DNA of 64,000 nucleotides, taken from Escherichia phage FV3. This document shows, one piece after another, positions 38,451 through 52,838 of this stretch (its first letter is position 1; every line of letters begins with the position of its first letter). The stretch lies in sequence record NC_019517.1. One strand, written 5' to 3'. The translations under genes were made by a program, and so were the position numbers. The notes under the pieces were generated by a model, which was not told the DNA's origin, did no database searches, and saw only the letters and a program-made list of their open reading frames with translations.

Positions 38451-38756
38451 ATGGCTAAATCTAAAGTTGAACTGTTCACCTCTCTTCCTTCTGACACTGC
38501 AGAGCGTGATCGCCTCCGTAAAACAATTGAAGAGCTGGTAGAACTTCAGCTTCAGATTAAAGATCTGAAAGACGCTATCAAGGATATTATTCTTGTCGAG
38601 AAACAGGATCACCTGTATTCTCCTAAGTTTATCAAGTCCTTGGTGGCTACCGAATTCGATATCCGCTACGAGGCTGAAAAACGTCGAGCTAAAATCGAAG
38701 AAGAGGTTGAGCACATGTCTGAAGCAGACATTCTGTTCAAACGCTCTGCAGAATAA
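38451..38756 (+). CDS. hypothetical coiled-coil protein (101 aa)
   Basis: SD AAGGAGA; terminator follows. Confidence 0.45.
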   Translation: MAKSKVELFTSLPSDTAERDRLRKTIEELVELQLQIKDLKDAIKDIILVEKQDHLYSPKFIKSLVATEFDIRYEAEKRRAKIEEEVEHMSEADILFKRSAE

Positions 38757-39993: not shown

Positions 39994-40112
39994 AGCACCG
40001 AGCCCACATAAGTTTATCATGCTAAAGCATGGCCTGAAGAGGCAAACGTGCATAATTCCAGTGCATTGGAACGTATAACCCTGTTCACACTCTCATTTCC
40101 AGAGGAGATTTT

Positions 40113-40328
40113 ATGAAGATAGAAATATTTGGTGGAGCTGACAACACTCGTGGCCTGATTTACCTTGAATTCGATGAATCATACCTGCCAGAGGTGTTAA
40201 ATATAGACTCTGTTGCTGAGGCTTTGGGAGTAAACCCTAAAGAACTCCACTCTTGTGCTGAGATCGATGGTTGGGAAGAGACCATGAACATTGATTTCAG
40301 TGAAGTAGAGGATGAACCGCTGGACTGA
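40113..40328 (+). CDS. small acidic protein, paralog family A-like
   Basis: MKIEIFGG...acidic C-terminus. Confidence 0.45.
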   Translation: MKIEIFGGADNTRGLIYLEFDESYLPEVLNIDSVAEALGVNPKELHSCAEIDGWEETMNIDFSEVEDEPLD

Positions 40329-40508
40329 CACACAATTAGCTGCCCGGCTAAAGTGCTGGAAGCACCTATAACACATCTTTCAACTAAATTTCCTACCACC
40401 ACAATCACTTACCTCCCACACATGACTGTTTGCTTGTTTAGTGAGCAGTCATTCCTTGACATTCTTGCCTATCCTGATAAAATTAAGTTCTTCTCTTTTC
40501 TTTTACCG

Positions 40509-40535
40509 AGTAATTCGGGTTTTCTGTTCTCTTCG
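40509..40535 (+). terminator. possible terminator closing the plus-strand block
   Basis: hairpin CCGAGTAATTCGG followed by T-rich tract (approximate). Confidence 0.35.
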
Positions 40536-42559
40536 GTTTGAAGGGGTATGGAGATACACCTGAGTGAACAGGGTGAACAACCGAACCTTTAGCTATGGCA
40601 TTAGCATGGCGAAGCGGACGGGTGACGAAAGAGGGGCCGGAGGACACCAGTCACTGCCATATGGTATATGGGTGATAACCTGAAGAGTCTGAATAAGTGT
40701 TTAAGTACCAGTCAGAGGAAAAGGTGAATGGTAGCCGAAGGGGGAGGGGGGTTTCTTGTATCTTTAATTTGTATACTTTATATACACTTGTAAACCAATT
40801 CAATTAGAATATGGATACCACACAAAGTGGATAGAGGCAAATATTCCCTATTAAACTTGAATTATTTATAGAAAATACCACAACACTGCTTAAGTCTTTG
40901 ATTTTACACACAAATATTACAAATATCCTGCCTCTATATTTAACATACCTGTAACATATTCCATACTCTCCCTGATTGATCAATTCCCCAACTACATCCC
41001 CATATTTTCCCTTCCTGTACTACCCCTGCCCCGCCGGGAGTCCCGTCATATCTGGCTTTCCAGCAAATATCACACCCACAAATATCATTGCCTGAAGAGG
41101 GTTTCATCCCATAATACCTGCCTTACCCGAAGAGCGCTTCATACACCACGTAAATTTTTTAATTGACCTGCAATTTTCCTGCAGACCCACCCCCTGCCCA
41201 GCCGGAGAGGTTGGCTTTTCCCACACAGGCCTGAAGAGTCAGCCAGAAATATCTGAAGGGGGTCCAGTTCTACCACGATTTTGACCTGACCTACAGGAGC
41301 GCTGCCAGGCGGACGAAATGGGAATACTTCTCATTCTTATAACAATTCTCAAATATCGGGGCAGTGAGGCAAATTAATAGGCGAGGCCGTTCACACAGTG
41401 GCACAACATTTGCAAGCTATTTTGCGGGGGTGAATGAGAATACCTATCATTGTGAGAATAGTTATCATTACGGGCAATTTAACATAATACCCATTATGCG
41501 CACCACTGGCGATACATACAGGGATTGATAACATGGGTTACTGTTTACGCATATAACAATTGTATTTCTTATTATTTGTGGGGGATATAGTTAGCAACCA
41601 ATAGATTAGTTATTAACCTGCGGACTTCTGACCGTCTAGACGTCCAAACGCCCACACCACAAGGATTATACATACACTCCTGCATGTAAACAGGGCCGCA
41701 AAAATGCTACCATACCAGTTTGTAAATTTTCCATGCAGCACTTGACAAAGAGGAGAAAAACTTGTCTGACACACTGGACACCTTATACACCTTATACACT
41801 TTCGATACAATAACGATTGTTATTATTTCATGTTTCACTGTTCACGTATAGATTGTTCCTGCATAGACTGTTTACGCCTGGATAGTTTACACCTTGACAG
41901 TTTACGCAGATATGATAAGCCATGACATTCGTTTGCATAGTTGCCTTATTGTTACAGGTAAAACAATTACATTGTTAACTATTTCTTATCTTTCTCTTAG
42001 TCATCTAATGATTCCAGTCAGTATAGTTATGTACAGTAAACATTAGACGACTAAATATTTCTCTGATTATAGTAACCTATCGTGACAATTTCTAACTGTT
42101 TACGAAAAATGTTGACACCTGGGCAGGTTTATGTTATGCAGTTTGTACGAATAATTATTTTGTACAGGTATTGACTATTCCGTTATTCTGTGGTTGGAAT
42201 AAATACTTTGCAGGCTATAGAATGGTGATCGTACGTGGATTCTGAGATCTGTCGGCTATAGTTACACCCGATTTTTCACGTAGGACACGCTTTTTGGTTT
42301 GTGTAAGTGTATGACTTATAAGGGTTTTTAATTGTTGACAGTATACTGAAGATGTGCATCAGGTTAAATTTTGTGCAATAGCTGCATTACGTGCAATTTT
42401 GGGAGAGAAAACGGGTAAAAATAGCACCGCTACCACACAATGAAAGGTTATGCAATAGCTATTTTACATGTATATTTGTACAGTGTGCGGGATTGATGGC
42501 TCGTCAATTATTCCACTTGTCAGGTAGGGCCGTTTATGGTAGGAAAAGAGCAGACAAAA
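40536..42559. other. gene-free repeat-rich region between convergent blocks; candidate origin, regulatory or ncRNA locus
   Basis: no credible ORF over 2 kb; motif CTGTTTACG in at least 5 copies (41540-42100), CCTGAAGAG x3, GAGAAYRNTTATCATT x2. Confidence 0.5.
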
Positions 42560-42590
42560 AGAAAGGGGCCTAAGCCCCCTTGATAATGTT
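42560..42590 (-). terminator. rho-independent terminator closing the minus-strand block
   Basis: on minus strand AAGGGGGCTTAGGCCCCTT hairpin followed by TCTTTTTGTC. Confidence 0.6.
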
Positions 42591-42593
42591 GTA

Positions 42594-42857
42594 TTATTTG
42601 TTGCTCATCCAGTTTTCCCAAGCTGCCTGATAATCTGCCTCACTGCGGCGGATCTCTTCTTGTTCTTCAAGCCGGATCTCTTCTTCCAGGTACCCAAGGA
42701 TATCGGATTTTTTGGTCTGGCGTAACATCCAATCATCTTTTTTACGAGTAAAGATCTTGTACGCTTTCTCGCAAACCTCTTTTTTACTACCTTTTTGGAC
42801 TTCAAGAACTTTGTAGGCCATGTACTGAACTAGTTTGAGCTGATCAAGACGTTTCAT
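42594..42857 (-). CDS. hypothetical protein (87 aa)
   Basis: track ORF. Confidence 0.45.
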   Translation of the reverse strand: MKRLDQLKLVQYMAYKVLEVQKGSKKEVCEKAYKIFTRKKDDWMLRQTKKSDILGYLEEEIRLEEQEEIRRSEADYQAAWENWMSNK

Positions 42858-42920
42858 GATGTTTACCTCTTTATGGGGTTCTGGTTTGGTGTGGGCCTTT
42901 TGGCCCGTGTCATTATCTTA

Positions 42921-43193
42921 TTACTTGCGGCGGCAAAATTCAAGCGTTTTTAATTGATAATCTTCCTCAGCCTGGAGTACAACCGCCTCGATCATTTCGT
43001 TGGCATTGGTGAAGCCATACCCTTTAGCGAACTCATCCGCGCCACCTTCGTGATCATGTTCTGCGTTCATCGCTTCCACAAAATGGAATTCCAGGTTATT
43101 GAGATAAGGGCTTGATGTTCCGTCCTCTTTTTCGATGAGATCCCAAATAGCATTAAAACGTGATTCGACTTCTTGGTTAATCCAGCTTGACAC
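42921..43193 (-). CDS. hypothetical acidic protein (90 aa)
   Basis: track ORF. Confidence 0.45.
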   Translation of the reverse strand: MSSWINQEVESRFNAIWDLIEKEDGTSSPYLNNLEFHFVEAMNAEHDHEGGADEFAKGYGFTNANEMIEAVVLQAEEDYQLKTLEFCRRK

Positions 43194-51603: not shown

Positions 51604-51899
51604 GATTTTTTATCCTCTCTGTTAATTAGTGTGGTGTTGTTCACCTTGCGAGGATAAGAATAACAAAAACTGTCCGAGCTGTCAACCACTAGTTAAAATT
51701 ATTTTTTGGGTAGAATTCTCCAGCCGCCGCCCCTGCCAGGTTGACCATCATTTTTTCGTACTCTTCTTTATGTTCCAACGCTTCCGCCATAGCCTTTTCA
51801 ACCAGGGCGATAGCCTCAGCGTTATTAATAGCTACATTTTCCAGGGGGATCCTATTACCTTTCATTTTTGTACCTCCTCTTCAATTGTTACCTATCCTA

Positions 51900-52838
51900 T
51901 AACATAGGCCCACCAGGCTGGCCCCGCCAGGTTGCAGCGGTTAGCGCATCAGGTTAGAATTTTTTTTTTTTTGAAAAGTGTTGACAGCGGCCCCGCCAGG
52001 TGGCACAATATACATATCGAAAGGACGGCAGGCACCGGTGACGGGGGAGACAACCACCGGGGATGGGCGCTGCATGAAATGAGAACGATTATCATTATCG
52101 TCTAAAAATTTATGCAAAAACTTCTTGCTTTCTTTGTCCTGTGTGATACTATAATAACAAGCCGGGGCAGTAGGGGCCGGGAGACAATCACCGGGGGTGC
52201 CCGTTATTCTGCAAACGAGAATGATTATCATTCAAAATTCTAAATGAGAACTTTTCGCATTTCATAAATTTAGTTAGCATGCTAATTACCTACCGTGACA
52301 ATTCTATATAAAATAATACCTCATAAAATATTCCCATATAGAAATTTTAAAAATCCATTTCTGAAAACGAAAAATCGCTTTCGTTCCCAAAAATTTTAGA
52401 TCTGGTGCTGGACCAATTTCAAGAAAATCCGATTCAGAAAACGAAAAACAGATCGAGTACCGAAAAATTTATCGAGAAAAATTTTCAGAAAATCCAATCT
52501 TTGAAATGAAAAACAGATCGAGTACTGAGAGAGATGTATCAAAACTTACTGATAATAATTAACTTATTGTCATAAAAGGCCGAAAGTAAGTTGGGAAAGT
52601 TCTGGTAGAAGGGTGAGAGTGTGTGCGGAAAATCTGGAACGGTGATTTGAAGTACGGTGCGAACGATAGGATGATCAGCACAGCTTATCGTGCCTGTCTT
52701 GAAAAAATCCATTTTAGTTTTCGATCCATTTTCTGATTTTCTAAGAATTTTAAAATATCCGGCCAGGTAAAATATCAAAAGGAGGAAATCCATTTTAGAA
52801 ATCCTCCTTATGTTTGATGTGCCAGGGATTTTCAAGTA
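51900..52838. other. second gene-free repeat-rich region; candidate regulatory, origin or ncRNA locus
   Basis: 14-T run, plus-strand promoter-like TTGACA-N17-CACAAT at about 51981, duplicated 70-bp unit, AAATCC(A/G)(T/A)T repeats, 22-bp direct repeat GAAAAACAGATCGAGTAC. Confidence 0.5.

Follow-up and report, generated by a model that had tools for sequence, protein, structure and literature searches.

Two blocks of early genes converge in the genome of Escherichia phage FV3 and leave between them a stretch that is devoid of genes and dense in short repeats, which raises the question of what this DNA is for. The window analysed is the whole 64,000-nt stretch from sequence record NC_019517.1, in whose numbering all coordinates are given, and the region under study spans positions 40329-42593. 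The + strand block closes with a stop codon at 40328 and the - strand block with one at 42594, as read from the list of open reading frames (ORFs) and from the sequence, in agreement with the gene-free stretch between converging blocks described in an initial annotation of this DNA. That annotation proposed a replication origin with iterons, a binding array for a phage regulator or structured non-coding RNAs (ncRNAs), and missed what appears by homology to be the main identity of the region: the physical genome ends, with a 459-bp direct terminal repeat at 41308-41766. Judged by its sequence the phage is a Vequintavirus (an rV5-like myovirus of ~137 kb), and the region very probably is the genome-end (concatemer) junction of this genus, with fixed ends and T7-type packaging.

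The evidence that carries this reading comes from related phages. Approximately 120 phage records match positions 40330-42593 at 88-95% identity, nearly all of them from Escherichia Vequintavirus, and the 'Campylobacter phage' records among the matches had Vequintavirus taxonomy where checked (A147); the conservation in related phages that the initial annotation's proposals presupposed is present. Annotation under the match is absent in most of these records, and several GenBank records start or stop inside the region. The Gotham record carries a 459-bp repeat_region at both ends, the two copies being identical, and this sequence aligned with window positions 41308-41766 at 94.6% identity and with no gaps. 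The 459-bp block lies exactly at the record end in eight records (Gotham, HdK5, EdH4, Pr121LW, ECP2303, EcoIv14a_Aya, bov10K2 and bov22_2), and in HdK5 and EdH4 it occupies positions 1-459 and a second place in the record. The repeat was free of gaps in the 459-bp alignments across the sampled records, and both the Gotham repeat and the record-end blocks stop exactly at the edge that corresponds to 41766. Terminal repeats of 459 bp have been published for Gotham (PMC7471380) and 'short terminal redundancies of 458 bp' for EdH4 and HdK5 by Korf et al. (PMC6563267), along with a fixed packaging start. Fixed termini and doubled read coverage of the repeat have been published for Gotham, for EdH4 and HdK5 and for KPP-1. 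In KPP-1, which belongs to another genus of the same subfamily, the terminal repeat measures 514 bp and was classed as T7-type by PhageTerm (PMC9862379). A terminal-repeat junction is already documented, then, for close relatives of FV3.

By homology to these experimentally defined termini, virion DNA of FV3 is predicted to start at 41308 (GCTGCCA/GGCGGACG, the slash marking the end) and to finish at 41766 (AAAAACTTGTC/T), so that the repeat would stand at both ends of each packaged molecule. The region would be the form seen in replicating concatemers or in a circularised assembly, with a right-end unique arm (40329-41307), one 459-bp repeat (41308-41766) and a left-end unique arm (41767-42593) in that order. 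On the model of T7-type packaging, the terminase would recognise the junction and cut at two fixed edges, and repair synthesis would duplicate the repeat. The single copy in the window is what a collapsed or circularised assembly is expected to hold. With the start mapped to 41308 and the end to 41766, it would follow that the early gene blocks both read toward the chromosome ends.

Sequence constraint within the region was assessed in a comparative alignment of 19 sequences, comprising the window, 15 full-length relatives and three partial contigs. Nucleotide diversity was 0.019 over 40383-40775, 0.0525 over the terminal repeat and 0.085-0.105 in the other non-coding parts, and in the flanking genes it was 0.10-0.16 at third codon positions and 0.01-0.03 at first and second positions. 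Conserved islands were located at 40420-40750, 41020-41110, 41470-41500, 41740-41770, 41920-41950 and 42130-42190. Two of these lie in the repeat: diversity fell to 0.008 at 41470-41500, and the equally invariant right edge at 41742-41766 is a candidate cleavage or recognition sequence. The 'repeat_region' annotated in pangalan and nomo appears, from coordinate offsets, to match the 34 bp of the 18-bp tandem that is also inside the repeat.

The region is real, non-coding and functional. In rV5 the homologous stretch is the gap between ORF163 and ORF164, which was drawn as a grey box labelled 'non-coding' that 'contained no ORFs' (Fig. 2 of PMC3606486). The view of the initial annotation that no credible ORF exists held up, every ORF being either broken in most of the 15 full-length relatives or open only through invariance. 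ORFs of 36-65 aa outside 40420-40750 have a frameshift, a stop or no start in most of these relatives. It is near-invariance of the sequence that keeps three ORFs inside 40420-40750 open; these start with GTG and lack a Shine-Dalgarno sequence, every substitution in the 54-aa minus-strand ORF alters the amino acid in a site-by-site check, and the other two likewise have multiple protein variants across relatives. A coding role was ruled out for each ORF of at least 36 aa by the integrity of frames and stops in relatives together with the substitution pattern, and a 44-aa ORF labelled 'structural protein' in the APCEc02 record was rejected as a gene on the same frame and stop grounds. The records of NHEP1, Mangalyan, MiataMamis and PMBT16 fill the junction with 12-16 tiny 'hypothetical protein' coding sequences (CDSs), 16 in one record. 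As none is conserved across relatives, the tiny CDSs annotated in the junction of relatives are probably over-annotation. No tRNA or tmRNA was found by ARAGORN. Terminators had been proposed on both flanks: that of the - strand block is strong, and the + side has only a weak 5-bp hairpin with a U-run (40506-40518) that lies downstream of a promoter. Scans of the ten nearest flanking proteins against Pfam and PHROG returned PHROG families of unknown function, and the search among them for a Rep, terminase or DNA-binding partner yielded one generic transcriptional regulator (phrog_639, 38451-38753).

The right-end arm contains a promoter-driven block without an ORF. The promoter at 40456 matches the sigma-70 consensus at 11 of 12 positions with an extended -10 element, is directed toward the terminal repeat and is the best such match in the region, no other of at least 10/12 being present in 40484-42593. 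It occurs in all relatives with only single changes in the spacer, and the palindrome directly upstream, which has one singleton substitution (40424) among the aligned sequences, is a possible operator or upstream hairpin. The promoter is the last of a consistent + strand series and sits at the position of a gene. Approximately 30 near-consensus sigma-70 promoters (at least 10/12 with TG, or at least 11/12) were found in the window, co-oriented with the gene blocks: all are on the + strand up to 40456 and on the - strand from 44642 on, with the sole exception of a + strand match at 51981 in a second gene-free region. To judge by sequence, this co-orientation indicates dense transcription of small early genes by the host polymerase toward both chromosome ends.

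Downstream of the promoter, the ~260-nt block (40490-40752) is CU-rich at its 5' end and closes with a G5AG6 tract at its 3' end; between the two are a small hairpin that carries a U-run (40506-40528) and a core of high GC content with tetraloop-like hairpins. It is 97-99% identical in ~117 records, and the 330-nt block to which it belongs is the most constrained non-coding sequence found in the region. The GC enrichment noted in the initial annotation at 40560-40760 was confirmed as 52-56% GC at 40550-40700, compared with ~41% nearby, and falls inside these most conserved 330 nt, directly behind the promoter. The G tract is kept with small shifts in all relatives; in the spacer that follows, the sequence varies across relatives and the composition does not. 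The block is taken as functional because of this constraint alone. The region is predicted to carry one transcription unit without an ORF, consisting of the promoter at 40456 and ~260 nt read toward the junction, and the block may yield an ncRNA, a primer transcript or a transcript linked to packaging. Homologues of the block were found neither in E. coli genomes nor, by relaxed BLAST of phage records, outside the genus, and the window holds no paralogue; IMG/VR contributed one near-identical contig and JGI/ENA metagenomes four, with no divergent homologue among them. The literature searched on transcriptomics or on the region offered only the 'non-coding' label and the terminal-repeat lengths, and 40416-40752 was not found described there.

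Short repeats are set around the terminal repeat in separate families, and the repeat families reported in the initial annotation proved to be real features of a non-coding, cis-acting region. Exact copies of the motif CTGTTTACG stand at 41541, 41868 and 42096, within 556 bp, and nowhere else in the 64 kb; copies with one mismatch are at 41838 and 41898 (+) and at 41685 (-). Allowing up to one mismatch, 22 matches were counted in the window against 11.75 expected, six of them in the region, and none of 100 shuffles reached 22. The claimed clustering was likewise reproduced: Tandem Repeats Finder (TRF) detected a 15-bp period, with copies at 41838, 41853 (degenerate), 41868, 41883 and 41898, and exact ACTGTTTACG outliers stand at 41540, inside the terminal repeat, and at 42095. 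In relatives the number of strict TGTTYACR copies ranges from one to seven, with degenerate ones in addition. This run comes after a GACAY run in relatives, which begins one base past the right edge of the repeat in every one of them and has 2-7 copies (by pattern count) at ~10-bp spacing. The paired TTATACAC was found at 41783 and 41792, and the tandem is missing from several relatives. With a diversity of 0.26 and many indels, 41767-41940 is the least conserved part of the region.

Upstream of the terminal repeat, the three copies of CCTGAAGAG that had been reported were located at 40679 (inside the conserved block), 41091 and 41230, and a further copy at 40033 is ~75 nt upstream of the last gene. 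Degenerate copies stand at 41126 (CCCGAAGAG), a site with the exact motif in 12 of the 15 relatives, and at 41253. Eight copies stand in the window, where 0.42 would be expected, and every one is on the + strand. Of these, at least four are intragenic, reading Pro-Glu-Glu (CCT GAA GAG) if in frame; a genome-wide signal was rejected for this motif, only the 40679-41253 cluster being clearly non-coding. The C-rich motif that recurs 280 and 450 nt beyond the G5AG6 tract (40740-40751), at 41023-41037 and 41191-41205, is nearly its reverse complement; it reads CCCCTGCCCCGCC in the window and CCCCCTCCCCGCC in relatives, and this long-range G/C inverted repeat adjoins the left edge of the terminal repeat.

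The short repeats would be cis-acting DNA sites placed asymmetrically about the terminal repeat, as its anatomy suggests, with CCTGAAGAG upstream, the tandem palindromic pair and a block shared across genera inside, and the GACAY and TGTTYACR arrays immediately downstream. As the number of copies changes freely from one phage to the next, importance lies with the motif and the array and not with the exact layout; retention of motifs while number and spacing drift is expected of arrays of protein-binding sites. By analogy, the short repeats probably bind proteins for packaging, end-processing or replication. The features of the region are collected in Table 1.

Table 1. Features of the region between the converging gene blocks of phage FV3 (window coordinates).
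Feature	Position	Strand	Basis or remark
Whole gene-free, probable genome-end (concatemer-junction) region	40329-42593		ORF list, sequence, homology
Invariant palindrome ATGACTG-N17-CAGTCAT, directly upstream of -35	40422-40452		Sequence, alignment
Near-consensus sigma-70 promoter TTGACA, 16-nt spacer, TG-a-TAAAAT	40456-40483	+	Promoter scans
Nearly invariant non-coding block, ~260 nt	40490-40752	+	Diversity, identity in records
GGGGGAGGGGGG tract, non-template strand, end of conserved block	40740-40751	+	Sole + strand tract of this form in 64 kb
AT-rich, poorly conserved spacer with indels	40753-40950		26-30% GC, diversity 0.10-0.25
C-rich units CCCCTGCCCNGCCGG at 41023 and 41191, each followed by CCTGAAGAG (41091, 41230)	41023-41262	+	One orientation, upstream of repeat
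Homologue of 459-bp direct terminal repeat	41308-41766		Alignment to Gotham, record ends of relatives
18-bp tandem TGAGAATACCTATCATTG / TGAGAATAGTTATCATT inside repeat	41435-41469	+	TRF, motif search
Most conserved block inside terminal repeat	41477-41512		80% identical over 35-36 bp to A5-4/LTH01
Invariant right edge of repeat, TTGACAAAGAGGAGAAAAACTTGTC	41742-41766		Diversity 0.008 at 41740-41770
GACAC x2 and TTATACAC x2	41767-41800	+	Hypervariable copy number
Five TGTTYACR-type 9-mers, 15-bp period	41837-41912	+	Motif search, TRF
22-bp sequence GCCATGACATTCGTTTGCATAG	41919-41940		Direct repeat flanking an element in all 15 relatives
Conserved island in left-end unique arm	42130-42190		Diversity 0.016-0.028 vs ~0.09 around
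Intrinsic terminator closing - strand block	42562-42581	-	AAGGGGGCTTAGGCCCCTTT then CTTTTTGTCT

The same arrangement was sought in a more distant genus. In phages A5-4 and LTH01, unclassified members of the Vequintavirinae, the flanking 87-aa protein shares 67% identity with that of the window, and a syntenic convergent region that is poor in genes extends over 1.7-2.1 kb. BLAST against the two returned a single block of 35-36 bp (41477-41512; E = 3e-4 to 8e-4). On reading the sequences, the context of the left cut site was also recognised in A5-4 (GCTGCCAGGC) and LTH01 (GTTGCCAGGC), with copies of CCTGAAGAG or CCTAAAGAG upstream of it, a G5AG5AG5 tract directly after it and, ~460-520 bp downstream, a purine-rich stretch that is followed in LTH01 by three copies of CCTCTTTGTGT. 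In both phages a long inverted repeat (GACACTATAAAACGAG...CTCGTTTTATAGTGTC) occupies the place equivalent to an element that is absent from FV3 (see below). C-rich motifs (CCCTCCCGCC) are present as well, in the opposite order relative to the G5AG5AG5 tract. The comparison predicts where the genome ends of A5-4 and LTH01 lie, and suggests an ancestral architecture rather than an ancestral sequence.

Explanations other than a genome-end junction were weighed against the same data. A classical iteron origin or phage-regulator array, in which the TGTTYACR array and its outliers would bind an initiator or repressor independently of packaging, is the least probable of them and was judged quite unlikely. 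The 9-mer shows enrichment and a 15-bp phase, every relative has arrays of this motif, and five phased copies (41838-41906), where an iteron origin should show at least three direct repeats beside AT-rich DNA, are followed by DNA of 29-31% GC at 41950-42050. However, the array lies in the least conserved part of the region, PHROG scans disclosed no adjacent initiator or Rep gene with which iterons might be conserved, and the array adjoins the edge of the terminal repeat in every phage, which argues for an end-related role; moreover, the second gene-free region of the window has longer and more iteron-like repeats (3 x 49 nt at 52341-52528). The origin with iterons named as one option in the initial annotation is thus weakly supported, the more so as no exact DnaA box (TTATNCACA) is present in the region and the skew switch coincides with that of transcription. 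Eleven 8-of-9 matches to the DnaA box, among 94 in the window, amount to an ~4-fold enrichment in 40688-42361, but they lie in AT-rich DNA. DnaA boxes are a doubtful feature of the region, the matches being 8-of-9 only and not conserved in relatives, as with the two tandem copies of TTATACAC. Their enrichment speaks for an origin primed by transcription, which is compatible with the genome-end identity of the region and which we consider unlikely. Here RNA from the promoter at 40456 would form a stable RNA-DNA hybrid at G5AG6 to serve as primer, and the AT-rich DNA at 40753-40950 would unwind. The layout fits, as a strong invariant promoter is succeeded by ~260 invariant nt, by the non-template G5AG6 and by 200 bp of 26-30% GC; the G tract persists throughout the relatives and in another genus, and the cumulative GC skew reaches its maximum in the region. 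In that other genus, though, no comparable promoter lies ahead of the G tract (A5-4 and LTH01), the skew switches where transcription changes direction, the change to which the rV5 authors attributed it (PMC3606486), and the parallel with ColE1 and CSB II is an analogy.

Alternatively, the conserved block might have no relation to the genome ends and specify a regulatory ncRNA of ~260 nt, stable and structured, with host or phage targets on which it would act in trans. Among mechanisms for the block this option ranks above a primer or R-loop transcript, although it too is doubtful. It would account for the position of a gene behind a typical early promoter, for a constraint that is similar to that at first and second codon positions of the flanking genes together and stronger than at first positions, and for the GC-rich core with its tetraloop-like hairpins; for the CU-rich 5' end, Shine-Dalgarno sequences or the G-rich 3' end are conceivable pairing partners. 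Tests of structure lent the ncRNA no support. The covariance-model scan proposed in the initial annotation gave no credible match: Rfam 15 had none in the window at the gathering threshold, and at E values up to 10 only chance-level hits were returned for 40000-43000 and for the rV5 homologue. The predicted fold of 40488-40775 had no excess stability over shuffled sequences (z = -0.86 on the + strand and -0.41 on the - strand), and none of the changes at ~20 variable sites in the alignment was compensatory, four of nine substitutions in predicted pairs being disruptive. With no homologues outside the genus, there is little variation against which a structure could be tested.

A genome-end junction remains the preferred reading of the region, and four points weigh against parts of it. 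Only one repeat copy is present in the window, so that the ends of FV3 itself are placed by homology and not by observation; an inverted-repeat element which all relatives possess is missing here and is either dispensable or a sign that this genome is atypical; transcription of 40490-40752 is a prediction, whose modelled fold is no stabler than shuffled sequence and shows no covariation; and the arrays are assigned to packaging rather than to replication or regulation by analogy. Within the junction, we put forward tentatively, as a suggestion more apt to fail than to hold, that 40416-40752 is an undescribed, Vequintavirus-specific functional RNA element, either a primer or R-loop transcript that fires replication beside the genome end or a counterpart, served by the host polymerase, of the phiOR/pacB of T7, in which reading into the junction would license end cleavage. 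The G5AG6 tract and the hypervariable flanking arrays would then be parts of one end-processing machinery.

The missing element concerns the left-end arm. In 15 of 15 relatives (for example rV5, L007, and SYGMH1, L020), an element of 213-339 bp is flanked by a 22-bp direct repeat (GCCATGMCATTCGTTTGCATAG) and carries long inverted repeats (ATGACATAATATAAAAGCAG...CTGCTTTTATATTATGTC) plus GC hairpins. It is absent both from the corresponding site and from elsewhere in the window. FV3 thus appears, from this alignment, to have lost by natural deletion a left-end element that is conserved elsewhere, with 41919-41940 as the scar. At the outer edge of the same arm (~42575-42593), most relatives carry a 420-nt ORF164 between the - strand terminator and the 87-aa gene (L007 4104-4523 in rV5); it is absent in the window and in SYGMH1, pangalan, nomo and APCEc02, and is a variable accessory gene at the junction edge. 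The Murica record describes its product with the words 'contains Rel homology domain'.

The tandem inside the terminal repeat connects the region with the second gene-free region (51866-52838). As the initial annotation stated, GAGAAYRNTTATCATT is present twice in the studied region and recurs in the second one; the copies are at 41436, 41454, 52081 and 52217, a few bases from the positions first given. Five matches were counted in 64 kb against 0.99 expected, and none of 100 shuffles reached five. When scored against the E. coli Fur consensus (GATAATGATAATCATTATC), the match was 17/19 at 52081-52099, 15/19 at 52217, 14/19 at 41454 and poorer at 41436, and no match with three or fewer mismatches is expected by chance. 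Positions 52219-52233 (GAATGATTATCATTC) form a perfect palindrome. The tandem at 41435-41469 may accordingly be seen as weakly related to the Fur-box-like palindromes of the second region (52081 and 52217). The second region itself is 85-97% conserved in 120 records and has two tandem + strand units, in each of which a promoter is accompanied by a GC-rich hairpin (GGGAGACAAYCACCGGGG) and by a Fur-box-like palindrome. Its three 49-nt direct repeats (52341-52528) lie in AT-rich DNA and have an iteron-like look, and Serratia phage Kashira shares 92.6% identity over a 54-bp piece (52198-52251) that overlaps the second palindrome.

These results bear on a group of phages in wide use, rV5-like phages being common in sets for typing, in cocktails for phage therapy and in the BASEL collection. 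The genome start is arbitrary in most GenBank records, which leave the region blank or fill it with spurious small ORFs. Identity as a terminal-repeat junction fixes the true genome start and end and warns against gene calls there. The region also offers cis-elements for packaging, replication and engineering, for example for the placement of payloads or packaging signals, and the roles of the invariant promoter block and of the arrays beside the repeat are still modestly of interest.

Several known systems invite comparison. Origins primed by a transcript include ColE1 RNA II, T4 oriF/oriG, the primary origin of T7 and the mitochondrial LSP-CSB II system. The likeness to these is architectural only: a promoter, a constrained transcript, a non-template G-run and then AT-rich DNA, as far as the analogy goes. 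The G5AG6 tract is close to the mitochondrial CSB II G-run. Likeness to the E. coli Fur box is strong only at 52081 and 52217, the copies inside the studied region being weak. Compared with the terminal-repeat regions of other Vequintavirus (Gotham, EdH4, HdK5 and the box of rV5), that of FV3 is the same in locus, in the length and edges of the repeat and in synteny; it differs in lacking the inverted-repeat element and the 420-nt ORF164, the latter absent also in several relatives, and in having its own array copy numbers.

A further system for comparison is the T7/T3 junction, in which a 160-bp terminal repeat has arrays of short imperfect repeats (SRL/SRR) beside it and the phiOR promoter with pacB transcribes into the junction, and in T7 this transcription assists cleavage of the end. 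The T7/T3 concatemer junction was reportedly treated by Dunn & Studier in 1983 and by Chung & Hinkle in 1990. FV3 differs in being a myovirus of ~137 kb without sequence similarity to these phages, in a promoter that is of the sigma-70 rather than the phage-polymerase type and stands ~850 bp from the repeat, and in flanking genes that read toward the ends and not away from the left end. The likeness, by analogy, lies in a short direct terminal repeat with fixed ends, in arrays next to the repeat and in a right-arm promoter that is directed into the junction, and extends to the T7-type classification of the subfamily relative KPP-1 (PMC9862379).

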